From Candidatus Saccharimonadia bacterium (GTDB lineage: Bacteria > Patescibacteriota > Saccharimonadia > UBA4664): a stretch of 64,000 bases of DNA. Positions within the stretch are counted from its first letter, which is position 1. Every line of letters begins with the position of its first letter. The stretch spans positions 3,298-67,297 of the forward strand of contig JBBRSS010000003.1 of NCBI GenBank assembly GCA_038245115.1, written 5' to 3'. Below are positions 17,736-64,000 of this stretch, in pieces. Both the position numbers and the translations under genes were made by a program. The notes beneath the pieces were generated by a model. The model was not told the origin of the DNA. It worked only from the letters and a program-made list of their open reading frames with translations, and ran no database searches.

Positions 17736-17953
17736 GCGTCCAACCTCACGAAGGCGGCTTCCTTTTTGAGTCGACTAAACTACCAGAAACCAGCAATGTG
17801 CAAAAATTGCACGTTGCAGATTTCACCAAACGATTTGCTTACTACTGTCTGGACGCGGTTACTCGGGTTTTCCACAACCATTTCGAGGATGTCCTCGAAA
17901 TGGTATTTGTCCGCTCCAGTGCTAAAAACACCGTTGTAAGTGGCACGAAATGA
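17732..17953 (+). CDS. Small hypothetical protein translationally coupled between hsdM and the KilA-N gene
   Basis: ATGA overlaps at both ends (17732 and 17950). Confidence 0.3.
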   Translation: MSVQPHEGGFLFESTKLPETSNVQKLHVADFTKRFAYYCLDAVTRVFHNHFEDVLEMVFVRSSAKNTVVSGTK

Positions 17954-23212: not shown

Positions 23213-23910
23213 AACGTAATTTCCGCTATGGTGCGTACGAATATGAATACGAACTGATTTCGGAAAACCGCAAAAGCCTCAAGTTGACGGTGATGCCCAG
23301 CCTGGGCATCATTTTACGGGCTCCCGTCGACGCCGACGACCAGCGTATTAAGCGGTTTCTCGAAAAGAAATGGCGCTGGCTCGAGAAGCAACTTCAAACA
23401 TTTGAGCGCTACCACAAAAAAAGTTATGCACGCAGCTATATCTCGGGTGAAAGTTTTATGTACTTAGGCCGGCAATATGAGCTCATCGTTGCACGCGGGG
23501 AGATCGATAGTGTTGGCCTTGTGCGCGGAAAGATCCGTGTCATCACATCACTTGGAGCATCAAAACCCGAGTACACGAAAATGCTCCTGGAAAGTTGGTA
23601 CCGCAATCGCCGCAATCTCATATTCCGTGATTCCTACGTCAAATGCCTGGGTTCCTTTGATTTCGCTGCGTCACCTAAATTTCTTATTAAAGAGATGGAT
23701 AAGCGGTGGGGGAGTTATACAAACGCGGGGAATATTGTGCTTAATCCACGTCTCATTGAGGCCGATAAACGAGCCATAGAGTATGTCATCGTACACGAAT
23801 TGTGTCATGCATCTGTTCGAAATCACGGCCCGCAATTTATATCGCTCCTAAACGAAAAACTACCCAATTGGCGGGAAGTAAAAGATAGATTAGAGCTCAG
23901 GCACGGCTAG
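23209..23910 (+). CDS. YgjP/DUF45-like M48-family metallopeptidase commonly linked to hsdR
   Basis: HELCHASVRNHG HExxH motif near the C-terminus; ATGA overlap with the hsdR stop. Confidence 0.7.
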   Translation: MKRNFRYGAYEYEYELISENRKSLKLTVMPSLGIILRAPVDADDQRIKRFLEKKWRWLEKQLQTFERYHKKSYARSYISGESFMYLGRQYELIVARGEIDSVGLVRGKIRVITSLGASKPEYTKMLLESWYRNRRNLIFRDSYVKCLGSFDFAASPKFLIKEMDKRWGSYTNAGNIVLNPRLIEADKRAIEYVIVHELCHASVRNHGPQFISLLNEKLPNWREVKDRLELRHG

Positions 23911-24015: not shown

Positions 24016-25059
24016 TTAGCCCCCAGTAACCGTGAAACTCCCCCCGTCACTGCCAATCGCTGATGGTGTGGCGATGGCGTGGCCGCGCCTGTTGACGAGG
24101 ACAATTTTCTGAGCACCGCTGCCGATCAGGTTTTGGGTGACACCGTTTGAGGTCGCCAGGGAGTCGGTGAAGCTCACCGAGCCAAAAACGTCGAACGGCA
24201 CCAGGCCGCCGGAGGCGTAGCTGGGGTCTTCTTGGATCCACTCGGCGCTCGATTGGGTACTGGCGTAGGTGACGGTAATCGAAAAGCTCTCGTGCTGGGT
24301 GACGTCACTGATGCTGATAAGCCACTGCGAGCCGCTCAATAGGTGAATGTCGGCGCTCATCACGTCGCCCGCGGCAACATGCATGCTGGGGATTGGCGTT
24401 TCGGGCGCCGGCAGCATCTCGTAAAACGCAATTGTGCTCGCCTGGCCGTCTTTGGTCACGGTATCGTCGGTGCCGACTTGGATGAGATCCGAGCCGGTCA
24501 CCCCGCCGATGCCAATCCAGGCCGCGTCGCCCGATTCTGATACTCCGTTGCCGCCTACGTGCGGGACTGTCCACGATCCGCTGACGCCGGTGAAATTCCC
24601 GGCGGGGGACATGTAGCCCGACCAGTTCGTCGAATAATATGCCGTGGCGGCCGGAGGGGGCGTGCCTTGACCGAGTCCGGGGGTCGGGGTTCCGCTGGGC
24701 GAAGGAATTGTCGTCGGCGCGGGGGTGGCGGCTGGGGTCACCGGCACCAGATGGCTCACTACGCTGTTGGGCGCCGGCGTTACTGGCGGCAAGGGCTTCG
24801 GCGCAATTGCCACTCGGCGCACCGGAGCTTTTGCGGGGGTGGGCTTGGGTTTGCTCGTGGGCGCCGGCGTGTGGACGGCCGGGGTGGGCGTAGCTGGCGC
24901 GGCCAGCGTGATAGCCCCGACGTGCGCCTGCATCTGCTTATGCGCACTCAGATTAGCCGCCGCCTGAATGCCAACCCCAAAACCGCCGAGGACCACTAAG
25001 GTCGCGACGAGTCCCGAACGTAAGAATGTTTTTGGCTGCTGTTTGTGTTTTTTTCTCAT
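24016..25059 (-). CDS. Membrane-anchored peptidase G1 (eqolisin/Peptidase_A4)-like protein with Pro/Thr-rich linker
   Basis: N-terminal TM; YYSTNWSGY...GNFTGVSGSWTVPHV and AAWIGIGG resemble the eqolisin SNWAGAV and W.GIDG motifs. Confidence 0.5.
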   Translation of the reverse strand: MRKKHKQQPKTFLRSGLVATLVVLGGFGVGIQAAANLSAHKQMQAHVGAITLAAPATPTPAVHTPAPTSKPKPTPAKAPVRRVAIAPKPLPPVTPAPNSVVSHLVPVTPAATPAPTTIPSPSGTPTPGLGQGTPPPAATAYYSTNWSGYMSPAGNFTGVSGSWTVPHVGGNGVSESGDAAWIGIGGVTGSDLIQVGTDDTVTKDGQASTIAFYEMLPAPETPIPSMHVAAGDVMSADIHLLSGSQWLISISDVTQHESFSITVTYASTQSSAEWIQEDPSYASGGLVPFDVFGSVSFTDSLATSNGVTQNLIGSGAQKIVLVNRRGHAIATPSAIGSDGGSFTVTGG

Positions 25060-42876: not shown

Positions 42877-44139
42877 ATGCAAACCAATTTTTTAGCCGCC
42901 ATTAACCTAATCGCCGAGGAAAAGAATCTTCCCCGCGATATTATTATTGAAACCGTCCAGGCCGCCCTGGCCGCCGCCTACAAGAAGGATTATTCCGACA
43001 AAGACCAAGAGGCCCGCGCCGAGCTCGACGAAGAGACCGGTGAAGTTCACATTTATGAGTCCAAGGTCGTAGTGCCCGATGGCGAAGTCGAGAACGAATT
43101 TCTCCAAATCGGCCTCACCGACGCCAAAAAGATCGATAAGAAGGCTGTTGTGCGCGCCGCCGACCTCGAAAATGAGATTGAACCCTATACGGTCGAGATG
43201 GAAGCTCACCCCGAAGACTTCGGCCGTGTAGCTGCCCAGACCGCCAAGCAGGTCATTATCCAGCGCCTCCGCGAAGCCGAGCGCGAAATCGTCTTCACTG
43301 AATACAAGGACAAAGAGGGCCTCGTGCTCAACGGTAGCGTCCAGCGCGTCGAAGGCAGCATGGCCTACGTTGATCTCGGCAAAGCCACCGGCGTCCTGTT
43401 TGCCTCCGAGCAAATCCCTGGTGAGCGTTACTATACCGGCCAGCGCCTCAAGGTGTATGTGGTGCGGGTCGAGCAGACCGCCCGCGGACCGCAGATCGTC
43501 CTCAGTCGCGCCCATTCGAGCATGGTCAAACACTTGTTTGAGCTCGAAGTACCCGAAATCGAAGCCGGGAGCGTCGAGATTGTCGGCATCGCCCGTGAAG
43601 CCGGTATCCGCTCCAAAGTCGCCGTGCAAAGCAATGCCGCCGGCGTTGACGCCGTCGGAACCTTCGTTGGCGGCCGCGGCAGCCGCGTGCAGGCCGTTAT
43701 GAGCGACCTCGGTGAGGAGAAAATCGACATCATCCCATACGCCGAAGATGCTGAAACCTTCATTGCCAATGCGCTGTCTCCTACCAAGGTAGTTAGCGTT
43801 ACTCTGAACGAGGTCGACAAGAAGGCCGTAGTTCGTGTCCCCGAAGACCAACTGTCGCTGGCTATCGGCAAGCAAGGCCAGAACGTACGCCTGGCCGCCA
43901 AACTGACCGGCTGGAACATCGACATCATTTCGGCCGACGAATCACGGGTTGAAGCTGCCGAAGCCGCTGCCGCCGCCGAAGCCGCCGCCGACGACAAGGC
44001 CGACATCGAAAGCTCGCTCATCGATGCCATCAACGCTCAGGCCGAAACTGACCCCAGCGCCGGCATCGACCCCGCGATGGACGAAGAGGCCACCGATGGC
44101 CAAACCGATGTCCTGGCCGGCCGCGAGTCCAACGACTAG
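42877..44139 (+). CDS. nusA: Transcription termination/antitermination factor NusA
   Basis: NusA N-domain, S1, two KH domains, acidic C-terminus; AGGAG RBS. Confidence 0.9.
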
Positions 44140-44367: not shown

Positions 44368-44433
44368 TTCTAAAGTTTAGAAAACATTTTCGAATTTGAA
44401 CTCAAAAAAATTGCGAAATTCTAAATATTAGAA
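44368..44433. promoter_or_regulatory. Two palindromic operator-like sites TTCTAAA-G-TTTAGAA (44368-44382) and TTCTAA-ATAT-TAGAA (44419-44433) upstream of the PadR-like gene
   Basis: Perfect inverted repeats sharing the half-site TTCTAA; the second overlaps the likely -10 region 13 nt before the ATG. Confidence 0.4.
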
Positions 44434-44445
44434 TACCCTGCATAA

Positions 44446-44766
44446 ATGAATGTCCCAAAGTCGATTCGAATCGCCAGGTCAAAACAAACGCCGTTAAGTT
44501 ATGAGCGAATAGCCATATTAATGGCCGTTGCCGACGGGCCCATCGACAAGGCCCGCATTGCCGAAAAAGTCCTCGGAGACTCGGTCGGTGACATAGCGAT
44601 AAAAGTCAGCACGATATACTACCTTATAAGTAAATTAACTAATGAGGGCTATATCCAGGCATCAGGTTCATATACATTAACCGACAAAGGTTACCGCACC
44701 CTCCATTCCGAGCTCAACCGCATCAACCAACAGCGCCTAATTCTCAAACAAAGGCTCCATATCTAA
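44446..44766 (+). CDS. PadR-like winged-helix transcriptional regulator
   Basis: ILMAVADGPIDKARIAEKV...STIYYLISKLTNEGYIQASGSYTLTDKGYRTL matches PadR wHTH architecture; located in an AT-rich intergenic island. Confidence 0.5.
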   Translation: MNVPKSIRIARSKQTPLSYERIAILMAVADGPIDKARIAEKVLGDSVGDIAIKVSTIYYLISKLTNEGYIQASGSYTLTDKGYRTLHSELNRINQQRLILKQRLHI

Positions 44767-44771
44767 ACAAA

Positions 44772-44798
44772 TTAGCACTCCCTTGCATGGAGTGCTAA
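44772..44798. promoter_or_regulatory. CIRCE element (HrcA operator) overlapping the clpC promoter
   Basis: TTAGCACTC-N9-GAGTGCTAA exact consensus; spacer contains TTGCAT (-35), 16 nt before TATACT (-10). Confidence 0.6.
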
Positions 44799-44901
44799 TA
44801 ATGATATACTAAGTCATATCTCAACGTCGATTCGTGACCTTTCCTGTATCGCTTGACCGTCCGTATCGAAGGTGGGAGGGTAAGAGAAAGGACACCAACC
44901 A

Positions 44902-47433
44902 ATGGCCGATTTTAGTTCACAATTCGACCGGTTCACCGAGAATGCCAAGCATAGTCTCGAGAACGCTGAAGCTATTGCGACGCAAATGGGCTCGAGTTAT
45001 GTCGGAACAGAGCACATTTTGCTCGGAGTGTTGCAGCAAGAAACATCAATTGGGGCCAAAATTCTCAAAAATATTGGTGTAACTTTCGAGAAAGCCCAGC
45101 TGGTACTTAGCTTTTCGCAACAGATGGCGGGTGGCGGCTACAAGGGCGCATCCGAAACCGCTAAGCGCACACTCACTTATAGTCTTCGAGTAGCTAAGGA
45201 GTTCGGGCAGCCATATTGCGGTACCGAACACATTCTGTTCGCAATTTTAAGCGAGAAAAGCGCCCGGGCTATTAGTCTGCTCAAAAATGATCTTCAGATT
45301 GACCCCGCTCTCATCCGCGGTGAGCTCGAAAACTACCTGGGCAACCAACAATACTTCTACGCCGACGAAGAGCGTACCGGAACTCGTAATGGCAAAGCCG
45401 GCAACGGTGCCAAGTCCAAGACGCCGGCTCTCGATCACTTTGGTATCGATCTCACGGCCAAGGCAGATGAGAATAAGCTTGATCCCATGGTAGGCCGTGA
45501 ATCACAAATTAGCCGCGTAATAGCCATTCTTGGCCGCCGCAGCAAGAATAATCCCGTACTAATTGGTGAACCGGGCGTTGGCAAAACTGCCATTGCCGAA
45601 GGTCTTGCCCAGCGCATTGTGGCCGAAGAAGTGCCGGAAATGCTGCTGCGTAAACGCCTAGTAATGCTAGATCTGGCATCGGTCATCGCCGGCACCAAGT
45701 ACCGCGGTGAGTTCGAAGAGCGCCTCAAGAAGATTCTTGACGAGGCCAAGGCCAGCCCCGAGATCATCCTGTTTATCGATGAACTCCATACGGTAGTAGG
45801 GGCCGGGGCCGCCGAAGGTGCTATAGATGCAGCTAATATTCTTAAGCCCGCCTTGTCGCGTGGCGATATTCAGGTTATTGGGGCTACCACCCTCGACGAG
45901 TACCGCAAGCACATTGAAAAAGATGCTGCACTCGAACGACGTTTCCAGCCGGTGCAGGTGCCCGAAACAACGCCCGAAGAAACTATCGAAGTGCTCAAGG
46001 GTTTACGGCCGCGCTACGAGGAGCACCACCACGTTGAGATTACCGATGAGGCTATTGAAGCCGCCGGTAAACTCGCCAAACGTTATGTCGCTGACCGTTT
46101 CTTGCCCGATAAAGCCATCGACCTCATCGACGAGGCCGCCAGCCTCGCCCGCATTAAGCGCGGCGGTTCCAGTAAGGCGCTTCGTAATCTGCAAAAACAA
46201 GTTACCGAAATCCGCGATGACATCGAAAATGCTGTGTTTGACCAAGACTTCGAGTTGGCCGCCCGCCTCAAGACCCGCGAAAGTGTCATCCAGAATCGTT
46301 TGGCCTCGCTCAAGCTCAAGGAAGGCGCCGCCGATTCCGCCGTGCGCATTTACGCCGAAGATATCGCTCAGGTTGTGTCGCTCATGACTGGCATTCCCAT
46401 GACCCGACTTATAAAAACTGAGGTTGATAGCCTGCTCAAGCTCGAAGAATCTCTCGGGCGCCGGGTCGTTGGTCAAACTGAGGCAATTGAGGCCATCGGC
46501 CGTAGTATTCGCCGCTCGCGCACCGGCATCAGCGACGGCCGTCGTCCCATCGGGTCATTTATGTTCCTCGGACCCACGGGTGTCGGTAAAACTGAGCTGG
46601 CTCGCATGCTGTCGGAAGAGCTGTTCCATGATCGCGATGCGATGATCAAAATCGATATGTCCGAGTTTATGGAGCGCCACAATGTCTCGCGCCTGGTCGG
46701 TGCTCCCGCCGGTTATGTTGGCTACGAGGAGGGTGGTCAGCTCACCGAGCAAGTCCGCCGTAAGCCCTACTCGTTGATCCTCTTTGATGAAATCGAAAAG
46801 GCCCATCCGGATGTCTTCAACCTCCTCCTCCAGGTTCTCGAAGACGGTTACGTGGCCGATGCCAAGGGCCGCCGCGTTGATTTTCGCAATACGGTGATCA
46901 TAATGACTTCCAACATCGGCGCTTCGGATATGCACAAAGAAGTCGAGCTGGGCTTTCACACTGAGACCCCCGGCCAAGAGAAGCAGCTCGAAGCCGCCCA
47001 CGCCAAGATCAAGATCAAAGTCCTCGAAGATCTGAAAAGGCAGTTCCGCCCCGAGTTCCTGAATCGCATCGATGCCACCTTGGTGTTCAAAACCCTTAGC
47101 CAAAACGATATCAAGAAGATCCTGGCTATTCAGTTGGCCGATCTCCAGAAGCGTCTCGATGACCAAGAGATTAAGCTGCGAGTTACGCCGTCGGCGCGAG
47201 CCTTGCTCATGGAGCGCGGCTACGATATGAAGCAGGGCGCCAGGCCGATGCGCCGGGCCATTCAGGACCTGCTCGAAGACCCGCTGGCTACAGGCATGCT
47301 GGAGAACCGGTTTAAAGCCGGGGATAGCATCACCGCTACCAGGCGCAACGACCAGATTCATCTTTCGACTGCCCACCATACTAAGTTTGAGGCTGATCTG
47401 GGTGAGCTAGAGGCCCCCACTCCTGCCGAGTAA
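44902..47433 (+). CDS. clpC: ATP-dependent Clp protease ATP-binding subunit ClpC (class I Clp/Hsp100)
   Basis: Two Clp_N repeats, two AAA+ modules ([16 protein letters not shown] Walker A), ClpB/D2-small domain; 843 aa. Confidence 0.9.
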
Positions 47434-47477: not shown

Positions 47478-48824
47478 ATGGCTAAAGTTTCAACTAAATT
47501 TGTTTGCCAAACCTGCGCCTCAAGCTATAGCCGTTGGATGGGTAAATGCGAGCAATGCGGCGCCTGGAATTCTTTGGTGGAGGAAGCCGCCCCGGTGTCC
47601 TCGGGCGGCTTCGGTAAGTCCAAGCCCGCTACCGCTCTCAAGCCCACAACGCTTTCCGCTGTGGCGGTTGAGCGCCTCCCCAGGGTGCCGAGTGGCATAC
47701 CCGAGGTCGATCAAGTCCTCGGCGGTGGTATCGTTCCCGGCTCGGTCATTCTGCTGTCCGGCGACCCCGGTATCGGCAAGAGCACGTTAGTCCTACAGAT
47801 TGCCGCCGCCCTCGCCCTCGGGGAGCGAGTTTTGTATGTCAGCGGCGAAGAGAGCACGGCCCAGATTCGTTTGCGTGCCGAGCGTCTCGGTCTCGCGGGC
47901 AGCGGGCTCGAATTGCTCGCCGATACCAATGTCGATGCCATTACTGCCACTATTGAGCACAACCCCTACCGACTGGTCATTATCGACTCAATTCAAACTA
48001 TGGCCGTCGAAGCTCTTACCGGTTCACCCGGAACTGTTGGTCAAATTACCGCCAGCGCCCAAGTGCTCCAGGCGGTGGCCAAGCGCCGCGGCCCTGCTAT
48101 TCTCATCATCGGTCATGTCACCAAGGAGGGCAATATTGCCGGGCCCAAAATCCTTGAGCATCTGGTTGATGTAGTACTCTATCTCGAAGGCGAACGTTAT
48201 GGAGCCTTCAAGGCCCTGCGCGGCATTAAAAACCGTTTTGGCTCTACCAGCGAAGTCGGCATCTTCGAAATGGGCGAACATGGCCTGGTGCCCGTGGCAA
48301 ATCCGTCTGAGGCTTTGCTGGCCGAACGCCGCCCCGGGCCTGGCTCGGTGGTGTTGGCAACCATGGAGGGCACGCGCCCGCTCCTGGTTGAAGTTCAAGC
48401 TTTGGTGTCGCCGACTTCGTTTGGCTACCCCAAGCGAACAGCTGTTGGTTTTGACCTGAACCGACTTAATCTTTTAGTAGCCGTACTCTCAAAACGCGCC
48501 GGCCTCAATTTGAGTTCGTCTGATATTTATGTTAATGTAGTTGGCGGGTTGCGGGTCACTGAGCCGGCCGCCGATTTAGCCATTATTTTATCTGTTGCTT
48601 CGGCATTCTCAGACACGCAAATACCGAACGGACTCGTCACTTTTGGCGAAGTTGGCCTCAGTGGTGAGGTTAGGTCTGTCAGTCAGGCTGGCCGACGGGT
48701 CGCTGAGGCGACTAAGCTCGGATACAGGTTAGCCATTGGTCCAAAGTATGGGGCCGTAACCGGCATGAAGGGCGTTTCCGATGTAGCGGCTGCAGTGAAG
48801 CTGCTCTCAACAGCACATCAATAA
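47478..48824 (+). CDS. radA: DNA repair protein RadA/Sms
   Basis: C4 zinc finger CQTCASSYSRWMGKCEQCGAW, RecA-like Walker A GDPGIGKST, KNRFG motif, Lon-like C-domain. Confidence 0.95.
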   Translation: MAKVSTKFVCQTCASSYSRWMGKCEQCGAWNSLVEEAAPVSSGGFGKSKPATALKPTTLSAVAVERLPRVPSGIPEVDQVLGGGIVPGSVILLSGDPGIGKSTLVLQIAAALALGERVLYVSGEESTAQIRLRAERLGLAGSGLELLADTNVDAITATIEHNPYRLVIIDSIQTMAVEALTGSPGTVGQITASAQVLQAVAKRRGPAILIIGHVTKEGNIAGPKILEHLVDVVLYLEGERYGAFKALRGIKNRFGSTSEVGIFEMGEHGLVPVANPSEALLAERRPGPGSVVLATMEGTRPLLVEVQALVSPTSFGYPKRTAVGFDLNRLNLLVAVLSKRAGLNLSSSDIYVNVVGGLRVTEPAADLAIILSVASAFSDTQIPNGLVTFGEVGLSGEVRSVSQAGRRVAEATKLGYRLAIGPKYGAVTGMKGVSDVAAAVKLLSTAHQ

Positions 48825-48845: not shown

Positions 48846-50162
48846 ATGACCGATACTATCTCATTATCGTTGGCTATCGTCGGCGTTCTAATATTCTTTC
48901 TCGGGGTGCTCCGCTTGCGCCACGTTTCTATTCAGGGCTTAGTCTTTGGATTAACTGGCGCCATCATTGGTCTATTACTTGGCGCCTTGGCAAGCGTGCC
49001 CTTGAGCAAGCTACCGGCACCTTTCGGCAATATTATGCCTCTAGGTGTGACCGTAATTCTGACATTCGTGATGATGGGGGTGATGAATGCCCGACAGGCG
49101 GCACTACTGGCAATGATGCCCTTCCTCGACGTCAAAAGGGCTGACCCCTCCGCTCAGTCCGCCGAAGCTACGGCCGCCGCCGTTAGTACCTCACAGATGC
49201 CGCAGATCCTCGTTGATACGTCGGTTATTATCGACGGCCGAATTGCCGATATTGCTACCGCAGGGTTTGTGCCAGGCCGCCTGTCTGTGCCTCGTTTCGT
49301 GCTGGCCGAGCTGCAAAACATCGCCGATTCGGACGATGCTATGCGCCGCGGCCGTGGCCGCCGTGGCCTCGACGTTCTCAATACTCTGCGCGAACTTCCG
49401 GATGTTGAAATTACCATAATTGAGGATGACGCCCCCACGGTAAAAGAAGTTGACGCTAAGTTGGTCGCCCTGGCCCAGCGTTTCGGATGTAACGTCCTCA
49501 CGACCGACTACAACCTCAACCGTGTCGCCCAAATCCAGGGTGTGCGCGTACTCAATGTTAATGAATTATCAAATGCTATTCGCCCGGTAGTATTGCCCGG
49601 CGAGGAGCTATTAGTGCGGGTCGTTCAGCCCGGTAAGGAGCGTAATCAAGGGGTTGGCTATCTCGCCGACGGCACGATGATCGTGGTAGATAATGGCGAT
49701 AAATTACTGGGCCAAGAAGTGCTTACCGAGGTCACTCGGGTGTTTCAGACTGTTGCCGGCAAGATGATCTTCGCTGTTCCGCGTCAAAGTCTCGGAAATT
49801 CTGGCAACCGTTCGGACGGCCCCAAAAAGGGCCCGCAGGCGTCTGCTCCAGATAGAACCTCACCAGACAAGAACACACCCGACAAGACTCCTGATGCTCC
49901 GGCTTCCGCTCAACCCACGAATGGACCCGCTACCGATCTAGCCTCCAAGCCCGCCGGTGAACCCGGTTCGTCCCGCCGATTTGGCCGCGGCCGAGGCGGC
50001 AAACGCTCCCAGCATCACTCTGAGACTAGCGGATCCGGATCTGATCAGCGCCAGTCACCCAGCGGCGCTATCGAGGAGCGCATGGTGGTTGCTAATAACC
50101 ACACCGCCTCCGGCCACCCTCACCCCCGCGCCGATAAGCCCGTTGATCCCCGCTCAAACTAA
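48846..50162 (+). CDS. PIN/TRAM-domain membrane protein (YacL-like) with long disordered C-terminal tail
   Basis: N-terminal TM helices, PIN domain (ILVDTSVIIDGRI...), TRAM domain, then a ~130-aa Pro/Ser/Gly-rich tail; follows radA as in Firmicutes. Confidence 0.7.
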   Translation: MTDTISLSLAIVGVLIFFLGVLRLRHVSIQGLVFGLTGAIIGLLLGALASVPLSKLPAPFGNIMPLGVTVILTFVMMGVMNARQAALLAMMPFLDVKRADPSAQSAEATAAAVSTSQMPQILVDTSVIIDGRIADIATAGFVPGRLSVPRFVLAELQNIADSDDAMRRGRGRRGLDVLNTLRELPDVEITIIEDDAPTVKEVDAKLVALAQRFGCNVLTTDYNLNRVAQIQGVRVLNVNELSNAIRPVVLPGEELLVRVVQPGKERNQGVGYLADGTMIVVDNGDKLLGQEVLTEVTRVFQTVAGKMIFAVPRQSLGNSGNRSDGPKKGPQASAPDRTSPDKNTPDKTPDAPASAQPTNGPATDLASKPAGEPGSSRRFGRGRGGKRSQHHSETSGSGSDQRQSPSGAIEERMVVANNHTASGHPHPRADKPVDPRSN

Positions 50163-50206: not shown

Positions 50207-53146
50207 CTATTTAGTAAAGCTCAGGTGGGTAGTCTCGCCGCCAATATCAGATCGAATGTACCAAATGTGATCGCCGGTACTTATTCCGCTGACTGACTTT
50301 GCAATACCGCTGGTTGTCGCCTTCAAGATGTCGTCAACGTACAGGCTGTAGCTGCCTGCTCCCGGGTCGACAGACCAAGCAAAATTGATTGGCCCCGAGC
50401 CCACTACGGCACCATCGGCCGGGAACACACCCTTAAAGCTCGACGCGCTCCCGCCGATATTTGTTACTGTTACCGCCTGATCGTCGCTCCCCTGGTATAG
50501 CCCGGCGTCGGTCACCACGGCCTTAAACGTATGGCTGCCGGTAGTTGTTGGCGAGTAGGACACTGGGTATGAGCCCGAGCCGTCAATCACCTGAGTCGAA
50601 ATAATCTGATCGTCAAAGTAAACCTCAAGCTTGTTGGACGTAAAGGTGCCCGATGTCACTTTGACGTTAAAGCTGTACGGCCCGCCGCCTGTAGCCCCCG
50701 CAATTGCCACTACCGGCTTCACGTCATCGCAATGATGCACATTATCAGTTCCACTCGGCAAGTCGCCGCCGCTGGTCGAGTATCCTGCCCGCTGCAACGC
50801 CACCAGCCAGTTCTGGAATTGGCTGGGGTTCTCGGTCTTGGTAATCTCGGGCAATATAGCACTTGAGTACACCGTGTTTTTTGCCAGCTCCGGTGTACAT
50901 TCAGTTGCCAGCAGACCTGATACCTTGTCAACTTGAGCGCTCTTACCACCAAACGAGCCCATTGGCGTGTACCAGCTGGGGAAGATGTCGACAGTGGAGT
51001 TCTTCGTGCCAGCCGATACGCTGCGCCCCGTGGTTTTATCTAGAGTTATAGTTTTTATGGTCGACGGTTTAGCGAATGCATCATTCGGTGTGCCGTTTTG
51101 TACCGCATTCATAAACGTTCTCCAGATAGGCGCAGCAATGTTGGCGGCCGCACCGCTCATGGGGCTGTTGTCATTATTTCCTACCCACACTCCGCCAACA
51201 ACATCGGGGGTAAATCCCATAGTCCAGGCGTCGTTAAAATGCTCCGTAGTGCCGGTCTTTACACCCGCATGCACACATCCGGTGGCTCTGTTGTTTGAGC
51301 AAACATTTCGCAGTGATAGTGAGTCACCAAAGACATATTGCTTGGCACTGGTATCGCTCAGAACATCCGCCATCAGTCCGGCCACCTCTGAGCTCAGTGC
51401 TTGCTTGGGCTTCTTGGGCTTAGTATTATCTTCGAGAATATTGCCTTTTTGGTCTTTCAGCAGCAAAATTGGCGTCTGCTCGTAGTGGAGTCCACCGTTG
51501 GCGAACGACTCATAGGCATTGGCCATCTCGTTAAGTTGGACCCCGCCGGTACCCAATACCAGCGACAGGCCATATTCGCTCGCCGGCTTGTTAAGCGTAC
51601 TAATACCTAGAGCTTGGGCCGTCTGGAGCGAGCTTGAAATGCCTGCCATCGCCAGCGCCTTCACCGCGGGTACGTTAAGTGATCCCGCCAAGGCCTGTCT
51701 CACGGTGATGATGCCGTAGTTCTTGTTGCCAAAGTTTTGCGGTTTGTAAGGAGTGGCATCGGTGCCAAAATTGGTCGGCACATCATATATCGTGGTGCCG
51801 GGTCCATAGGTTGGACAATCGCGGGTTTTTGCACACGCGGCGTCCTTATTTTTTCCGAAGAGGGTCGAGTACACGATTGGTTTAAAGCTCGAACCTGGCT
51901 GACGCTGGGCTGTCGCCACATTTACCTGGCCTCCTACCGGATCGTTAAAGTTTTGCGAGCCGATCATTGCCAAGATGTGACCCGATTTTGGATCCGTTGA
52001 GACCAGGGCGGCATTAGACCCGCCGAGCGACCGGACATTCTTCATATTGTTCTGGATAGCATCATAGGCGGCAATCTGCTTGTCGTAATCCAGCGTAGTA
52101 CGAACATTCAAGCCGCCTTCCGTAACGGTTGAGGTGCCATACTTACTTTCCAGATAGTCCTGAGCGTAGAGCACGAAGTGCGCTAGTCGGGGGTCGAGGT
52201 TAGCGTAAAGGTTCTGAATCTGCGAAATTTTAGCAGCGTCCGAGAGGTCGGCCACCTTCCATTTGGCGGCATCTGCTTCGGCCTGAGTCACGTATTTCTG
52301 CTCCGCCATCAGGTCGAGTACAATGTGCTGCCGGTCAATTAGCTGTGGCTGGTGAGCCCCAAACGGCGAAAAGTACGACGGCGCGTTTAGAATGGACGCC
52401 AACAGTGCCGACTGGCTGAGAGTCAGGTTCTTGGCACAGTGTTGGTCGCGGTCAGCTTTGTCGATGTCCTGCGGGAAGAACGTCTTGCAGGCGCTCTCTA
52501 TCCCGTAGGCCCGGTTGCCGTATGGTATTTCATTTAAATATAGCGTGAGAATATCGTTTTTGGAGTAGAACTGACCAATTTCAATCGACAAGATTAATTC
52601 TTTAATCTTGCGCGATATGCTTCGATCGGTGGGATCCAACAATGCGTTCTTCACGTATTGTTGGGTAATAGTGGAGCCGCCTTGGCGCCTTCCTTTGGTC
52701 AAGTCCACGAAGGCCGCGCGCAAGTAGCCCACGAAACTAAACGATCCGTGCCGATAGAAATCTTTGTCCTCAATGGCAATGGTGGCCTGCTTGGCCACGG
52801 CCGGGATCTGGTCAAACGCCACAATACTGCGATTTTGATCCCCGTAGAGCTCGTAGATCAGCTTATTGCCCGTTGAGTCATAAAACTTGGTTGTTTGCGC
52901 GGTTACGCGGGCGTTAATTTTTCCCGGCGTCGGCAGATCTTTGGCGAACCACAAAAAGACCAAAAATACGAACAACAAACCTGCACCAGCCAGCTTGGCA
53001 ACCCGTTTGGCGCCGTCTCGGCTCAGCCAGTAGGAGCGGAAGTTCCGCGGCGAGAAAGACATTAAAAAACGTTTGAAACTGCCCTTAGTACGCGAGCTAA
53101 AATCTTGCGAAGGCCGGGCAGGCTTACGGACATGTCGTTTGGGCAT
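50207..53146 (-). CDS. Class A penicillin-binding protein (PBP1A; transglycosylase plus transpeptidase) with ~230-aa C-terminal extension
   Basis: GT51 motifs (IAIEDKDFYRHGSF, GGSTITQQYVKN), transpeptidase SxxK/SxN/KTG, N-terminal cytoplasmic tail plus TM; extra beta-rich C-terminal domain. Confidence 0.9.
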   Translation of the reverse strand: MPKRHVRKPARPSQDFSSRTKGSFKRFLMSFSPRNFRSYWLSRDGAKRVAKLAGAGLLFVFLVFLWFAKDLPTPGKINARVTAQTTKFYDSTGNKLIYELYGDQNRSIVAFDQIPAVAKQATIAIEDKDFYRHGSFSFVGYLRAAFVDLTKGRRQGGSTITQQYVKNALLDPTDRSISRKIKELILSIEIGQFYSKNDILTLYLNEIPYGNRAYGIESACKTFFPQDIDKADRDQHCAKNLTLSQSALLASILNAPSYFSPFGAHQPQLIDRQHIVLDLMAEQKYVTQAEADAAKWKVADLSDAAKISQIQNLYANLDPRLAHFVLYAQDYLESKYGTSTVTEGGLNVRTTLDYDKQIAAYDAIQNNMKNVRSLGGSNAALVSTDPKSGHILAMIGSQNFNDPVGGQVNVATAQRQPGSSFKPIVYSTLFGKNKDAACAKTRDCPTYGPGTTIYDVPTNFGTDATPYKPQNFGNKNYGIITVRQALAGSLNVPAVKALAMAGISSSLQTAQALGISTLNKPASEYGLSLVLGTGGVQLNEMANAYESFANGGLHYEQTPILLLKDQKGNILEDNTKPKKPKQALSSEVAGLMADVLSDTSAKQYVFGDSLSLRNVCSNNRATGCVHAGVKTGTTEHFNDAWTMGFTPDVVGGVWVGNNDNSPMSGAAANIAAPIWRTFMNAVQNGTPNDAFAKPSTIKTITLDKTTGRSVSAGTKNSTVDIFPSWYTPMGSFGGKSAQVDKVSGLLATECTPELAKNTVYSSAILPEITKTENPSQFQNWLVALQRAGYSTSGGDLPSGTDNVHHCDDVKPVVAIAGATGGGPYSFNVKVTSGTFTSNKLEVYFDDQIISTQVIDGSGSYPVSYSPTTTGSHTFKAVVTDAGLYQGSDDQAVTVTNIGGSASSFKGVFPADGAVVGSGPINFAWSVDPGAGSYSLYVDDILKATTSGIAKSVSGISTGDHIWYIRSDIGGETTHLSFTK

Positions 53147-58330: not shown

Positions 58331-58416
58331 GCGGATGTGGTGGAATGGTAGACACGCTAGCCTTAGGAGCTAGTGGGGGCAACCCCGTGAAGGTTCAAGT
58401 CCTTTCATCCGCACCA
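58331..58416 (+). tRNA. tRNA-Leu (TAG), type II
   Basis: Acceptor GCGGATG/CATCCGC, anticodon stem CTAGC/GCTAG with loop cuTAGga, long variable arm, T-arm GGTTCAAGTCC, ACCA; 86 nt. Confidence 0.85.
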
Positions 58417-59954
58417 GGCATTATTTCGCCCGCTTTTATTAGGCTGGCAAACGGTTCGTTCCAGACATAATCCACTACTTTTGCGTTATCTACACGAAGG
58501 TTCAAAAACAAAATCCGGCAGAGAGTATCCTTTTCGACGGCAGAACCGGCTTTCATCCTTTCCGAAGCCATTTTAACGACGTTCAAGAATTCGTCGCGGC
58601 CCAGCTTGATTTGTCGCGGGTTGGCAATCTTTTTCTCCATCTCTAGTACTTGCGCCTCGAGGTCCCCTCGACGAACGGCTAGGTCGTTAATGAAGTCGTT
58701 GTTGACCGTGAAGGCGGTTGTGTCCCTATCCATGCGGCCGAGGTTGCGGCTGCGCTCATTAATGTCACGGGTCATGCTTGTAATGGCGGCCCGTCGGCTG
58801 ATTATCTCGGTCCTCATCTCAGCCACCTTCTCATCGGTGAAGCTGTCGATTTGGGCACTGTACACGTCGTATACGGTGTCCGAGAGCCGCATGCCGTCAA
58901 GAACGCCATATATGGAATTGAAGACATTACGCGCCCGTAGGGAGCGTGGAGTGCGGGTACACAACTTATTGTCGCAGCGATAGGATAAAACGTAGGTACC
59001 GCCTCCGGTCCTGTTCTTACCGACGAGCATGTATTTACGGTCGTTGCATACTGCACAGAACACTAAACCACGGAGGGGGTAAAACGCCGAGCGCTTCGTG
59101 GGGGAGGTGTCTTTTTTCCGACCATAGCCAATGACGCTGACATTTTCGTAGGTCTCCTCTGTAATTATAGGGACAAAGTTGTATATTTCGCGCAGGTCCA
59201 CAGCATGCCCGGCCTGGGCCAACTTTCCGTAATAAAAGGGGTCCTTGAACATAACGGCCAGGCTGTTCTTCGTTGGCCGGATTGCGCGGCGGTAGCGACC
59301 TTTAGTCGTCCGCTGGTACCCGGAGTCCTCTAGAAACTTTGCGATGGCAGCAAGTGTTTCGCCGGCTTCGCGTTTTACCCACGCCTGCTGGATTAATTTG
59401 AAATTGTTGTTTTGCGTGTAGAGGCCGGTCATCTCATCGCGGTCATACCCCCATTTCGGTGAGCCGGATGATTTTCCCTCACGGAAGTTACCATCTACCC
59501 CTCGTGAAACCTTGTCAGATAAATCGTCGGAGAAGTGTTTCGATAACACGAACAAGAAGCCGAGCAGCAGCTTCCCGTTGGCATCATTTGTGAACTGGTG
59601 ACTATGTAGGCGTATATCCTGTAGGACATTAGTATCGAGCAGGCTCATGATGACCCCGCTCTCCTGCGCATTGCGACTCAACCGGTCCGGATGCCAGCAC
59701 AAGATGGCATCATACTTACCTGCTTTTATCTCCGCCACCATTTTGTCGAAGCCTGGCCGCTGGTCGGCAAACTTAGCCGACTTGGTCTCTCGTATCTCGG
59801 CCACGATACGCAGACCAAGGCGCTCGGCTAAATCGCGACATTCACGTACCTGGTCCGGGATAGAGCGGATTTGGCGTTTTTCATCCTCGGTGGACTTTCT
59901 AGCATAAAGTACGTACCGAAGTTTAGTTAGGTCAGTCGGTTCTTGGCTTAGCAT
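58395..59954 (-). CDS. Large serine recombinase (resolvase N-domain, recombinase domain, zinc ribbon)
   Basis: YVLYARKSTEDE catalytic Ser motif, recombinase domain, Cys-rich ribbon (CAVCNDRKY...YRCDNKLC); the 3' end overlaps the tRNA-Leu 3' end by 22 nt. Confidence 0.85.
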   Translation of the reverse strand: MLSQEPTDLTKLRYVLYARKSTEDEKRQIRSIPDQVRECRDLAERLGLRIVAEIRETKSAKFADQRPGFDKMVAEIKAGKYDAILCWHPDRLSRNAQESGVIMSLLDTNVLQDIRLHSHQFTNDANGKLLLGFLFVLSKHFSDDLSDKVSRGVDGNFREGKSSGSPKWGYDRDEMTGLYTQNNNFKLIQQAWVKREAGETLAAIAKFLEDSGYQRTTKGRYRRAIRPTKNSLAVMFKDPFYYGKLAQAGHAVDLREIYNFVPIITEETYENVSVIGYGRKKDTSPTKRSAFYPLRGLVFCAVCNDRKYMLVGKNRTGGGTYVLSYRCDNKLCTRTPRSLRARNVFNSIYGVLDGMRLSDTVYDVYSAQIDSFTDEKVAEMRTEIISRRAAITSMTRDINERSRNLGRMDRDTTAFTVNNDFINDLAVRRGDLEAQVLEMEKKIANPRQIKLGRDEFLNVVKMASERMKAGSAVEKDTLCRILFLNLRVDNAKVVDYVWNEPFASLIKAGEIMPGADERT

Positions 59955-60430
59955 TGAGACATTCTACACCATACCTACAATTTTATGCGCCCGCCGCTGT
60001 TATCGGTGATGGATGTTTCATTTAGACGGGTCTCGGTAGGGGAGGGCTTTATTGCCGAAATTGCTTCTACGAGTTCATATAACCGACGATTTACCGCATC
60101 GGGCCGACCGCGCACATATTCATCCTGCTTTTGCCTACGCTTGGCCTGCATGTGCCCCAGCTCCCCGCATGCGCCGCCTTATTGCGGCGCGTTAATCATT
60201 CCGATGCGGTAAACAAAAAAGCCAATCAAAAAATACCAGTAGGGGCTGACATTATCGGAGTGGCCTTAACGCGGGCCATGAGACCTATCGCGCGATAGGC
60301 TCCCAGATGCTGAGCAGATTACAGATATTCATTAATTGACCTTGACGCTTTCCCGGAATGGGCGGGTCGAATTGCTTGGAACGTTTCAAGCAGTCAATGA
60401 GTATGATGGATTTTCAAGCTTACGGATTAA

Positions 60431-60799
60431 TTATATTTCGCTGGGCTTATCTGTCAAACCCTCGGAACTTTTCCCAGCATAGATAGGCGATGGAAGCGGT
60501 CCATAGTCGGTGGTTAAGTCGAGTTTGGTTCCATAGCCATATTTTGCGAGGAGGTCGATAGCCTTAAGGTCTCCCTCCAGTGCGCGCACAATCAGTGTCG
60601 CAACGATTGCCCGTATCGGCGCGCCCTTAAAACGGCTCCCGTCGTTGAATGTCAGCTTAAATCCGTCGTCTGCCAGCATTTCCTGTATCCACGTACTTAA
60701 ATGCTTTGTACCGCGCGGCTTGCCGGAAGGGTTACCAGACACGCCGGACTTCCATTGCGACTTTACGAGATGTGATGTTTTGGGAGTTAGGTTCGCCAT
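60431..60799 (-). CDS. DUF5681-like protein (phage/plasmid-associated)
   Basis: SGNPSGKPRGTKH resembles the DUF5681 GNPAGRPKG motif. Confidence 0.35.
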   Translation of the reverse strand: MANLTPKTSHLVKSQWKSGVSGNPSGKPRGTKHLSTWIQEMLADDGFKLTFNDGSRFKGAPIRAIVATLIVRALEGDLKAIDLLAKYGYGTKLDLTTDYGPLPSPIYAGKSSEGLTDKPSEI

Positions 60800-60825
60800 T
60801 GCCTGATTTATGCCTGTTATGGCTA

Positions 60826-61263
60826 TTATACCCGGCCAGGTATTCCGCGAAGGTAAGTGCTGGCTTCCAGGTAGCGGCGGTGGCGCGCTTTGTCCTTCTC
60901 CGTCGGGTTGGATAGGCGGCCGAGGTTCATGTTGTCGGCAAGGTCGGCTAGCTTAATGCGCGTCGCCTGGGCGTTCGTGCCGATGTTGTGTACGTAATCC
61001 ATGTAGGGGACTGCTTTAGCGTGCGTAAGGAGGGCCAAGACCTGAGCGCCGGTTTCTGATAAGCCCTCGGCTTGGAGGTCGGCCAGTGTAAAGGCCGTAT
61101 CCTCAACAATGTCGTGCAGAAGGGCGATTATACGGTCATCGGGGTCGGTGAGGCTCAGTGCGACTCTCAGCGGGTGTAGGATGTATGGCTGACCGCCTTT
61201 GTCCACCTGGCCGCGATGGGCTTGGGCGGCGATGGTTAGCCCGCGTTCAAAGTCTAGCGTCAT
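60826..61263 (-). CDS. Small alarmone hydrolase (RelA/SpoT-type HD domain, (p)ppGpp pyrophosphohydrolase-like)
   Basis: AHRGQVDKGGQPYILHPLRVA...LLHDIVEDT matches the SpoT/Mesh1 HD N-terminal signature; 145 aa single domain. Confidence 0.6.
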   Translation of the reverse strand: MTLDFERGLTIAAQAHRGQVDKGGQPYILHPLRVALSLTDPDDRIIALLHDIVEDTAFTLADLQAEGLSETGAQVLALLTHAKAVPYMDYVHNIGTNAQATRIKLADLADNMNLGRLSNPTEKDKARHRRYLEASTYLRGIPGRV

Positions 61264-61667
61264 TCTTTCGCCTCACGGGCGACGACTTCGGCCCTGGACT
61301 TGGCGTAGTCCCATGCTGAAAACTCCACAATGCCGCCGTTTGGAGTCTCATCAATGATAAATGGGTCTTCGCCGTACTGAGTGTATGAGGCGTATAGCTG
61401 CTCTGCCGTTATGCCAGCAGCAAATGGACCTGTGAATGAGCGGTCTACAATTTCCTGGCAAACACGGACAGCCTCAGCGTATGAGTCATACGTGCCCTTT
61501 TTGTACCGCTCACTCTCATCCATGAAGTGGTAATTATCATCAACTTCAACTGTGTACTGACCGGCCCCGGCGCTGGTCTTCGGTTTTGGCAAAGCCGCCG
61601 CCAATATTTTGCTTATCTGGCTCGGCGTTTTGCCTTTAGTTGAGATGAGGGCGATTAGTCGTTTCAT
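61260..61667 (-). CDS. Hypothetical protein
   Basis: ATGA overlap with the downstream SAH gene; 135 aa. Confidence 0.35.
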   Translation of the reverse strand: MKRLIALISTKGKTPSQISKILAAALPKPKTSAGAGQYTVEVDDNYHFMDESERYKKGTYDSYAEAVRVCQEIVDRSFTGPFAAGITAEQLYASYTQYGEDPFIIDETPNGGIVEFSAWDYAKSRAEVVAREAKE

Positions 61668-61812
61668 TGTATATATCTCCTTCCGGTGAGCACGAAAATG
61701 CGGCTCACTTCAAATTAATGAAGTAGCCGCAATGGACGCCGTAATTGGCCGCTGTCCTACATTCATACTATAGCATGAATAGCGAAGTACTGCAAATTAC
61801 TGACAGGGCATC

Positions 61813-62160
61813 TTACCAAAGGTTAAGTAGATTTACTGCGACAATGGCCATAACAATCGGGAAAAGAAAATCTATTATCGAAGTGACGGTGAATAGACTT
61901 AAAACCAAAACGTTATTTGTATCTGGAACGCGCTTATATTTTTGGATGCGTACCCAAAAAAGGGGTATAGAAAGTATCGAAATGACAAATACCCCAGGCA
62001 AGATTAGTAGGAAGATGTCGAGCATAGGGTGGTTATGGGCGATAAAGCTCCAGATTATCCCGGCAATCAACCACCATCCGATAGTGTTTTTGGCATAGCG
62101 ACTTGCAGACTCGTTAAACCAATCCCGGTGGATACCCATAATTATGTCTGGTTGTGACAT
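61813..62160 (-). CDS. Small membrane protein
   Basis: 3 hydrophobic helices, 115 aa. Confidence 0.35.
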   Translation of the reverse strand: MSQPDIIMGIHRDWFNESASRYAKNTIGWWLIAGIIWSFIAHNHPMLDIFLLILPGVFVISILSIPLFWVRIQKYKRVPDTNNVLVLSLFTVTSIIDFLFPIVMAIVAVNLLNLW

Positions 62161-62263
62161 TGAAAAAGCCTAAACGTAATTTCGCTAAACATAGCCTAAA
62201 TAAGTTCATAATGCAAACATTTGTTAGTGTTGCTTACAAAAGGCGACAAATACGCTTAGTTTT

Positions 62264-62491
62264 ATGGATGCTAGGCGAGAAAACAAAATACTTGATGAAG
62301 TTGGAAGTCGCCTGGCTTTGGCCCGTAAAGACAAGCAAATGTCCCAAGAGGAACTTGCGGCTAAAACGGGCCTAGATAGAGTAGCCATTGGATACATTGA
62401 GCAAGGTAGGCGGCGGCCGACGTTAACTACCATCATCCGACTCAGTCGCGGTCTCGGCGTCAGCCTGGAAAAGCTATTTACCGGGCTGTAG
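62264..62491 (+). CDS. XRE-family HTH regulator
   Basis: MSQEELAAKTGLDRVAIGYIEQGRRRPTLTTIIRLSRGL HTH_3 motif. Confidence 0.7.
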   Translation: MDARRENKILDEVGSRLALARKDKQMSQEELAAKTGLDRVAIGYIEQGRRRPTLTTIIRLSRGLGVSLEKLFTGL

Positions 62492-63160
62492 CTATTCGCT
62501 GTTGAGCGGGAAAGTGAGTCCTTGGTGATTATTCTTAACGTTACCCACATCACGGTGTACCTCGTGACGCTTCATCGGCTGGTCGTACGGGTCTAAGAGG
62601 AGCTGCAGTTCGCCCGGTTCGGTTTTCGGGTCTAGCCAGTGTGCCTCTTCATCGCGGTCTAATATAACTGGCATACGGTCATGTATGTCCTCAAGGGTGG
62701 AGTTCGGCTTAGTTGTTATTATGGTATAGCTCTTATGGGCCACACCGGCACTGTCGTACCACACGTCGTAAAGCCCGGCGAAGCTGAATAGCGCGCGGTT
62801 TTGAAGCTGAAAGTAGTAAGGCTGTTTGAATGTTTCCCGCTTTTGCCACTCATAAAAACCGGATGCAGGTATCAACGCCCGACGCTTTTTATATGGACCT
62901 CGGTAAAGTGGCTTTTCAGCTAATGTCTCAGCCCTGGCGTTGATACTGGTAAATGCGGGCTTGAACTCCTTCGACCACGATGGCACCAACCCCCACGTCA
63001 TAAGCTCTACCCCCTCAGCTGTGGCCACCGGCATACTTTGCGTAGGGGCGACATTATAATTGGCTTTCATGTCACGCTCAAACTTCTCGTCCATTTCAAG
63101 CTGCGAGTAGTAGTCCATGAGGACTTTGCCATTTACGACGATGCTGTATCTTCCGCACAT
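62492..63160 (-). CDS. SOS-response-associated peptidase (SRAP/YedK, DUF159)
   Basis: N-terminal MCGRY with catalytic Cys2; 222 aa. Confidence 0.8.
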   Translation of the reverse strand: MCGRYSIVVNGKVLMDYYSQLEMDEKFERDMKANYNVAPTQSMPVATAEGVELMTWGLVPSWSKEFKPAFTSINARAETLAEKPLYRGPYKKRRALIPASGFYEWQKRETFKQPYYFQLQNRALFSFAGLYDVWYDSAGVAHKSYTIITTKPNSTLEDIHDRMPVILDRDEEAHWLDPKTEPGELQLLLDPYDQPMKRHEVHRDVGNVKNNHQGLTFPLNSE

Positions 63161-63164
63161 GTGT

Positions 63165-63389
63165 TTAGGGTATCACGCGGAGCAGGTGGTCTAGCGAAAC
63201 TTTCAATTTCTGAGCAATAGCGCAGGCCAGGTAGAGCTGGAGGTTGGTATTGCTGCCGCGCTCTATGGCCATTATTTCATCCGCAGATATGCCAAGATGC
63301 CTGCCCAGCCCGGCCGGAGTCCACTTTTGCTCGATACGTAGGGACTTCATATTTTTGCCAAACCGCACAAGGTCCTGGCTGTAGGCCAT
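63165..63389 (-). CDS. XRE-family HTH regulator
   Basis: HTH_3-like (TPAGLGRHLGISADEIMAIERG). Confidence 0.6.
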   Translation of the reverse strand: MAYSQDLVRFGKNMKSLRIEQKWTPAGLGRHLGISADEIMAIERGSNTNLQLYLACAIAQKLKVSLDHLLRVIP

Positions 63390-63595
63390 TAAAGCAGTTC
63401 CAGGATATTCATATCGAGTGCGTCGGCTATTCGTTGTGCTTCAAAGACCGTGGCGACCCGCGTACCGCGTTCAATGGCTAGAAGGTAGTCGACACTCATC
63501 CCGACTTCCGACGCAAGCTGTGATGGCTCGCGGTGCGCAAGCTGGCGATAGTGCTGGATATGCAGCCCGAAGCTCTCTTTTGACAGTTGTCTCAT
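63389..63595 (-). CDS. XRE-family HTH regulator
   Basis: HTH_3-like (SQLASEVGMSVDYLLAIERG); overlaps the previous gene by 1 nt. Confidence 0.6.
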   Translation of the reverse strand: MRQLSKESFGLHIQHYRQLAHREPSQLASEVGMSVDYLLAIERGTRVATVFEAQRIADALDMNILELL

Positions 63596-63665
63596 AGATT
63601 ATCCCCCTGATTATGTAGAAGATAATACATCAAAACCGAACAATAACCATACACAATTAAGGAGA

Positions 63666-63959
63666 CTACGTAGTTGTTGAGTATGTACGCTGAAAAGTGT
63701 TTTCGACGAGGCGGACTTTTTGGTCAGTCCGATATCTCCACAGCGAGTCCGACTCTGGTACGCGCTCGACCATTTCAGAGTCGAGGCGTAGTGAGACAAC
63801 GTCAGTGATGCCGTCGGCAGAGGGCTTACTCGCAACTACGGCAAGGAAGCTTGAGGCCCCGGGGTTACGGTTCTTTGGGTCAGCGGCAGTATCAATGAGC
63901 TTTTGTACGGGTATCGCTTCATACCAGGAAAATTGGACGCGCTTTCCGGGCTCGAGCAT
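63666..63959 (-). CDS. Hypothetical protein
   Basis: 97-aa ORF with coding-like composition inside the island. Confidence 0.3.
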   Translation of the reverse strand: MLEPGKRVQFSWYEAIPVQKLIDTAADPKNRNPGASSFLAVVASKPSADGITDVVSLRLDSEMVERVPESDSLWRYRTDQKVRLVENTFQRTYSTTT

Positions 63960-64000
63960 CTGTATTGCATTTTCATCGCCCGCGTGCGCGTATGGTATTC

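Follow-up and report, generated by a model that had tools for sequence, protein, structure and literature searches.

A CIRCE element embedded in the predicted clpC promoter of Saccharibacteria points to HrcA control of the clpC–radA–PIN operon

HrcA and its operator CIRCE, a 9-bp inverted repeat with a 9-nt spacer, form the paradigm of Bacillus subtilis, in which the operator lies downstream of the transcription start. The clpC gene is generally associated with other regulators. In Firmicutes, it belongs to the CtsR operon, which is arranged as ctsR-mcsA-mcsB-clpC-radA-disA and followed by the PIN gene yacL. In Actinobacteria, clpC and clpP come under ClgR, whose operator consensus is of the CGC-N5-GCG type. 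In Mollicutes, CIRCE/HrcA covers the dnaK operon plus clpB and lon (PMC5138195, PMC7737663). A literature search retrieved no report linking HrcA or CIRCE to Saccharibacteria or the CPR, and none of clpC as a direct CIRCE target.

The window, i.e., the whole 64-kb stretch of DNA analyzed here, carries such a site upstream of clpC. A pattern search of the window located the exact CIRCE consensus, TTAGCACTC-N9-GAGTGCTAA, at positions 44772–44798, which confirms its identification in a preliminary description of this DNA. It is the single match in the 64 kb, even when three mismatches are allowed; none of 100 dinucleotide-preserving shuffles of the window contained a match, and none is expected by chance. 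On the plus strand, direct reading gives the order ...caaa TTAGCACTC ccttgcatg GAGTGCTAA taaTGaTATACTaagtc..., in which the palindrome forms a perfect 11-bp stem. The element starts 5 nt past the stop codon of a small upstream ORF, and 103 nt separate the end of its right arm from the clpC ATG (44902); the preliminary description had rightly placed it upstream of clpC, but at 104 bp. The operator, promoter, and leader are laid out as follows:

44772–44780, plus strand: left arm of the CIRCE, TTAGCACTC, an exact match
44781–44789, plus strand: 9-nt spacer of the CIRCE, CCTTGCATG, containing the −35-like hexamer (direct reading)
44783–44788, plus strand: −35-like hexamer TTGCAT, inside the CIRCE spacer, with 3/6 matches to TTGACA
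44790–44798, plus strand: right arm of the CIRCE, GAGTGCTAA, an exact match
44802–44810, plus strand: extended −10 element, TG, then A, then TATACT (direct reading)
44817–44901, plus strand: predicted 5′ leader of clpC, from the promoter geometry, with a probable start near 44817 placed from the −10 element

The TG of the extended −10 element occupies 44802–44803 and TATACT occupies 44805–44810, beginning 6 nt past the right arm of the CIRCE, with a gap of 16 nt between TTGCAT and TATACT. Direct reading therefore bears out the earlier observation that TTGCAT lies in the spacer, 16 nt before TATACT. The claim that the CIRCE overlaps the clpC promoter was also upheld, in that a predicted sigma-70-type promoter of this proteostasis gene has its −35 element in the spacer and an extended −10 element adjoining the operator. 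This site is absent from the output of a generic promoter scan of the window, as TTGCAT agrees with TTGACA at just three of six positions. Given the weak −35 element and the missing scan entry, the promoter is called from its TG-extended −10 element and from its conservation in relatives.

This conservation was examined in 47 informative loci, i.e., related CPR-type clpC loci with sufficient upstream DNA; the closest of the ClpC relatives, taken from GTDB species genomes, show 95% ClpC identity to the window. These relatives assign the window to Candidatus Saccharibacteria/Saccharimonadia, within the CPR. A CIRCE with at most three mismatches lies 17–151 nt upstream of the clpC start in 43 of the 47. 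In two more loci (L023 and L024), nusA and clpC are adjacent and the element instead precedes the pair, so that 45/47 loci, with ClpC identities of 44–97%, have the element at clpC or at nusA-clpC. In the latter two (L023:737-2146 and L024:2624-4201), the CIRCE before nusA has a TTGACA spacer, and clpC begins 18–33 nt past nusA; the essential nusA would therefore also be HrcA-controlled there. No recognizable CIRCE was found upstream of clpC in L018 and L029, which counts against an HrcA reading, and none occurred at clpC in the ~27 non-CPR loci fetched alongside (Firmicutes, Lachnospiraceae, Chloroflexota, and others). On a metagenome contig, a CIRCE with an embedded −35 element (L113:8926-8952, minus strand) lies upstream of a clpC whose product reaches only ~48% identity with the named Saccharibacteria ClpCs. 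The link between CIRCE and clpC may extend beyond the Saccharibacteria class.

Within the element, conservation is concentrated in the cores. Among 46 clpC-associated sites, the left core GCACTC is invariant in 45 and the right core GAGTGC in all 46. Mismatches are confined to the outer positions 1, 3, 25, and 27, and those of the left arm to positions 1 and 3 alone. Among the intergenic columns of the close-clade alignment, just those of the two arms, the TTG of the spacer (T24, T25, and G26 of the −35 element), the TG, and TATACT are invariant, while the rest of the leader has diverged. This is the pattern of a selected site that is kept (45/47 loci) as the flanking intergenic DNA changes.

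The promoter geometry is retained as well. A TTG is present within the CIRCE spacer at 41 of the 46 sites, a −10 hexamer of the TATACT/TATAAT type with at least 5/6 matches lies 4–6 nt past the right arm at 42, often with an upstream TG, and the spacing between the −35 and −10 elements is 16–18 nt at 40 of 41 sites. The TTG occurs in two registers, starting either at spacer position 1 (TTGACx), as in the −35 element of the distant relatives, or at position 3 (xxTTGCAx), as in the window. This 2-nt shift of the −35 element is matched by an altered offset of the −10 element, and the spacing is kept at 16–18 nt. Such a conserved geometry is expected if the promoter is a real one of the sigma-70 type, placed where a bound dimer would cover it.

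A stem of 11 bp could also be explained as an RNA or DNA hairpin, acting as a terminator or attenuator of read-through from nusA or the small ORF, or as an mRNA stability element. Besides the perfect stem, its start just past the stop codon of the upstream ORF suits this explanation, as does a terminator scan that lists the palindrome on the minus strand. However, no T-tract follows the palindrome on the plus strand, and no minus-strand gene reads into it. The comparative data also conflict with a mere requirement for pairing: the sequence itself is conserved, its cores being invariant over the 46 sites with one exception, and at least eight sites have one-sided changes that break an outer pair, e.g., TTAGCACTC with GAGTGCCAA. 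The same sequence precedes hrcA and dnaK, overlapping their promoters. Furthermore, since the −35 element is inside the loop, the palindrome would lie outside the clpC mRNA. We consider the hairpin explanation highly improbable and retain the reading of the palindrome as an operator.

The leader downstream of the predicted start contains a Shine-Dalgarno-like AAGGA at 44888–44892 and is poorly conserved in sequence among close relatives. Pairing between CCUUUCC and GGAAAGG looked possible, and an RNA thermometer or otherwise structured leader was considered and rejected: its stability did not exceed that of shuffles (z = +1.0), no consensus pairs were recovered across 13 relatives, and the leader had no Rfam match. 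A conserved, stable 5′-UTR structure sequestering the Shine-Dalgarno sequence was accordingly not found.

The genes around the element are arranged as follows:

42877–44139, plus strand: nusA, the upstream neighbor (TIGR01953)
44446–44766, plus strand: small winged-helix ORF of 106 aa, with a weak PadR-like match (E = 9e-4)
44902–47433, plus strand: clpC, a class III Hsp100 unfoldase of 843 aa (Pfam, NCBIfam)
47478–48824, plus strand: radA, 44 nt past clpC (TIGR00416, 543 bits, above the cutoff)
48846–50162, plus strand: PIN-domain gene, 21 nt past radA (PF01850, gene layout)
50207–53146, minus strand: PBP1A gene, convergent, closing the unit (gene layout)

The product of clpC is a ClpC-type Hsp100. 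Pfam identified a double Clp_N domain, two AAA+ modules, and a UVR motif in the middle domain, and an LGF tripeptide, which corresponds to the [LIV]-G-[FL] ClpP-docking loop, can be read in the translation. Its best solved relative is B. subtilis ClpC, with a single end-to-end match at E = 4e-250, in contrast to ClpB, which aligns in two pieces. Conservation of ATGGCCGATTTTAG... in 12 relatives corroborates the start codon. Another Clp-related gene in the window (2552–3022, minus strand) encodes a stand-alone protein of 156 aa with a Clp_N domain only and without an AAA+ module. Downstream of clpC, terminator-like sites on the plus strand occur only inside radA or the PIN gene and show no excess over shuffled sequence. 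From the layout, radA is a probable member of the clpC operon and the PIN-domain gene its probable last gene, and we infer that both are co-transcribed with clpC from the start near 44817.

On the upstream side, nusA precedes clpC in 45 related loci. The small winged-helix ORF between them, which ends 5 nt before the repeat, holds the position of ctsR in Firmicutes, and together with its PadR-like match this suggests another explanation, namely that the palindrome is the operator of this small protein, a local clpC regulator in the place of ctsR. Its distribution argues otherwise. The ORF is intact in only 2/45 related loci (L003, 61% identity; L046, 41%), and in the closest relatives, L001 and L002, it is a remnant of which the 3′ end alone survives, whereas the CIRCE is present in 45/47 loci. 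Moreover, the repeat at 44772–44798 is the exact HrcA consensus, and the small ORF is itself preceded by two other, different palindromes of 15 nt each, TTCTAAAGTTTAGAA (44368–44382) and TTCTAAATATTAGAA (44419–44433); L003 has different palindromes, GTCCTAACTTGGGAC and GTCCCAAGTTAGGAC, in the same places. The protein was rejected as a clpC regulator on the basis of its distribution among the related loci, and this explanation is extremely improbable, even more so than a hairpin. The ORF looks like a self-regulated, decaying, lineage-specific regulator, and HrcA remains the preferred ligand of the repeat.

Several other features of the window were recorded. A type I restriction-modification cluster at 15658–23910 consists of an hsdS fragment, hsdM, a KilA-N gene, hsdS, hsdR, and a YgjP-like metallopeptidase gene; its G+C content is 0.50, compared with 0.55–0.58 in the flanks, and it is therefore probably a mobile island. 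A gene for a peptidase A4 of the eqolisin type is located at 24016–25059 (minus strand). Toward the end of the window, a large serine recombinase gene (58395–59954, minus strand) overlaps the 3′ end of tRNA-Leu (58331–58416), and the DNA beyond it, up to 64000, has a lower G+C content and carries DUF5681, HD-domain, and SRAP genes. The region 58331–64000 may be an element integrated at tRNA-Leu.

The regulators known for clpC elsewhere were sought as well. A search of the window for the CtsR heptad repeat, RGTCAAANANRGTCAAA, that tolerated two mismatches found none, in agreement with the preliminary description. At Saccharibacteria-type loci, no CtsR box was found with up to one mismatch; the positive control for this search was weak, with one Firmicutes locus matched, so that the missing genes are stronger evidence than the missing box. 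Neither ctsR nor mcsA nor mcsB was detected in the window (Pfam on all long ORFs, NCBIfam on the upstream ORFs), and "CtsR", "McsB", and "ClpX" are absent from the annotation tables of Southlakia (PMC10633639). The window thus has neither a heptad repeat at the clpC promoter nor ctsR-mcsA-mcsB upstream of clpC. By direct reading, no ClgR-type CGC-N5-GCG box is visible at 44799–44901. The preliminary description regarded HrcA control of clpC as an atypical wiring; this is so relative to the Firmicutes and Actinobacteria models, but within Saccharibacteria the arrangement is the rule.

The window itself does not contain the regulator. Neither hrcA nor groES/EL, dnaK, or grpE was detected in the 64 kb by Pfam searches of all long ORFs, and short HrcAs used as tblastn queries gave no hrcA in the window or in the 80 clpC loci; HrcA is therefore a presumed regulator in the window's own genome. 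In the clade, however, HrcA is documented. According to the supplementary tables of Wang et al. 2023 (PMC10633639), SEML1_0720 of the cultivated Saccharibacterium Southlakia epibionticum is a gene of 729 nt assigned to KEGG K03705 (hrcA), with PF01628 and PF03444; its structural matches to 1stz cover the winged-helix and sensor parts only, it is essential by its Tn-seq score, and it immediately precedes grpE and dnaK. For this genome, the tables also give the order nusA (0513), Clp ATPase (SEML1_0512, non-essential), a hypothetical gene, and radA (0510) (PMC10633639), which is the synteny of the window.

Homologs of this regulator are abundant. With a full-length Saccharibacterial HrcA of 233 aa as the query, matches at E ≤ 1e-20 were obtained to at least 8000 proteins of the database. 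Among the 120 matches listed (P0241–P0360), the proteins have ~233 aa and are 84–91% identical; many of these lie on contigs of 0.4–0.9 Mb, and several carry NCBI Saccharibacteria names. Another query, L125, was rejected as a Saccharibacteria HrcA, as it belongs to a Kazan/other Patescibacteria group. The homologs of the HrcA on L087, one of the hrcA matches of the metagenome scan described below, are named Candidatus Saccharibacteria or Saccharimonadales by NCBI. In Saccharibacteria and other CPR, HrcA has ~230 aa, compared with ~340 aa elsewhere, and its DNA-binding domain aligns with that of Thermotoga maritima HrcA (1stz, chain of 338 aa) at E = 8.5e-14. NCBI labels these Saccharibacteria and CPR proteins merely "transcriptional regulator" or "DeoR family"; since most are annotated in this way, their regulon is easily overlooked.

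The preliminary description had suggested comparing the CIRCE copies at hrcA and dnaK, and for the clade this comparison revealed the same CIRCE-in-promoter design. In contigs labeled Saccharibacteria by NCBI (L201–L211), the order is gmk (or adk), CIRCE, hrcA, and grpE, with the −35 element within the spacer. In L208–L211, dnaK is preceded by two tandem CIRCEs (e.g., L208:6123-6199 and L210:4624-4700): an exact copy around a TTGACA −35 element and a second copy, with two or three mismatches, 23 nt downstream in the leader. Outer-position variants (CTAG..., ...CCAA, and ...CCAG) are common to the clpC and hrcA sites. At hrcA, the operator and the 3′ end of gmk, the gene upstream, overlap, and the ATG lies 6–8 nt past the −10 element (L203:3954-4003, L208:2955-3003, and L210:2954-3003), so the hrcA mRNA is probably leaderless.

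A motif-first metagenome scan for CIRCEs with TTGMM in the spacer returned 80 loci. The genes downstream were short hrcA (16), with grpE (14) after it, as well as dnaK (12), clpC (6), GroEL (6) and GroES (3), hsp20 (6), dnaJ (5), htpG (5), and rpoH-like genes (3). Four or five of the clpC matches are 66–75% identical to named Saccharibacteria ClpC. The groES-groEL pairs with a CIRCE were seen only on metagenome contigs without taxon assignment.

Expression data from TM7x provide a weak hint of co-regulation. In one growth-phase comparison, RadA (TM7x_02270, −1.97) and a Clp ATPase two genes away (TM7x_02280, −0.71) decrease together with groES, groEL, dnaK, dnaJ, and grpE, although the signal is small (PMC10768705). 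TM7x_02280 is annotated as "ClpX", and its identity as clpC is given by synteny alone.

Collectively, these comparisons make it highly likely that 44772–44798 functions as a CIRCE operator recognized by the Saccharibacteria HrcA, situated within a sigma-70-type promoter of the clpC-radA-PIN operon. HrcA very probably also controls clpC in Saccharibacteria, and the comparative evidence supports the HrcA–clpC interpretation of the preliminary description. In the mechanism that we infer, an HrcA dimer on the CIRCE would cover the −35 element in the spacer and adjoin the TG-extended −10 element; with the former inside the operator and the latter next to its right arm, bound HrcA would exclude RNA polymerase. 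By analogy with B. subtilis, GroEL/ES would keep HrcA active. Unfolded proteins produced by heat or other proteotoxic conditions would occupy GroE, HrcA would be released from the CIRCE, and clpC would be induced together with hrcA-grpE, dnaK, and probably groESL. Since the Saccharibacteria HrcA is ~100 residues shorter than the characterized HrcAs, its regulation by GroE is an extrapolation.

This shortness also bears on a further possibility, namely that HrcA binds at clpC but only sets its basal level or insulates it from nusA read-through, with no induction by heat or proteotoxic stress, as control by GroE may no longer operate in the truncated CPR HrcA. The length of 233 aa against 338 aa for the 1stz chain and the restricted structural match of the Southlakia copy would fit such a role, and the essential score of its hrcA suggests that constant repression matters. 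On the other hand, the regulon found at the same motif (dnaK, grpE, dnaJ, groESL, and hsp20) is the classical stress set, and the same genes shift together between TM7x growth phases (PMC10768705). We judge a purely homeostatic role to be unlikely, though less so than a hairpin, and favor stress-responsive repression of clpC by HrcA.

Transcription factors are very few in CPR/Patescibacteria, and gene regulation there is, to our knowledge, almost unexplored. The predicted control of clpC-radA-PIN by HrcA, alongside hrcA-grpE and dnaK, offers a concrete, conserved, and testable regulatory link in this group, for which genetic tools now exist. As a tentative generalization, to which we give somewhat less than an even chance, the truncated, essential HrcA of 233 aa may act as the sole master regulator that governs proteostasis in Saccharibacteria, and possibly also in CPR/Patescibacteria at large. 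It would have absorbed the Clp (class III) branch; the clpC-radA-PIN operon would couple DNA repair and an RNase to folding stress; and the operator design with the −35 element in the CIRCE would be typical of the lineage.

Its sequence, its placement, and the set of genes that share it assign the element to the CIRCE/HrcA family. The locus shares distinct features with each of the systems described at the outset. Compared with the HrcA/CIRCE paradigm of B. subtilis, the operator has the identical 9-N9-9 consensus, the repressor is orthologous with the same winged-helix DNA-binding domain, and, as predicted from the CIRCE sites, hrcA-grpE-dnaK is autoregulated in the Saccharibacteria clade as in the classical system. 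Yet the target in the window is clpC-radA-PIN, the operator encloses the −35 element and abuts the −10 element rather than following the transcription start, and the Saccharibacteria HrcA has ~233 aa instead of ~340 aa. With the Firmicutes CtsR operon, the locus shares an orthologous ClpC, the clpC-radA-PIN order, and a repressor site on the promoter, but ctsR, mcsA, mcsB, and the CtsR box are missing, and a CIRCE stands in the place of the box; the order of a cluster common to Firmicutes has been kept, while its regulator appears to have been swapped from CtsR to HrcA. The ClgR system of Actinobacteria likewise places clp genes under stress-linked transcriptional control, although ClgR, unlike HrcA, is an activator with an unrelated operator.

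The swap from CtsR to HrcA parallels the regulon consolidation of Mollicutes, with which Saccharibacteria have in common a reduced genome, very few transcription factors, and one HrcA system for chaperones and AAA+ genes. The two belong to different phyla, and the AAA+ target in Mollicutes is clpB or lon, whereas here it is clpC, the partner of ClpP. As HrcA control of AAA+ genes is known in Mollicutes, the clpC case extends a known kind of regulation. HrcA control of clpC would therefore be a modest, previously undescribed extension of a well-known system, and one that is not surprising in principle.
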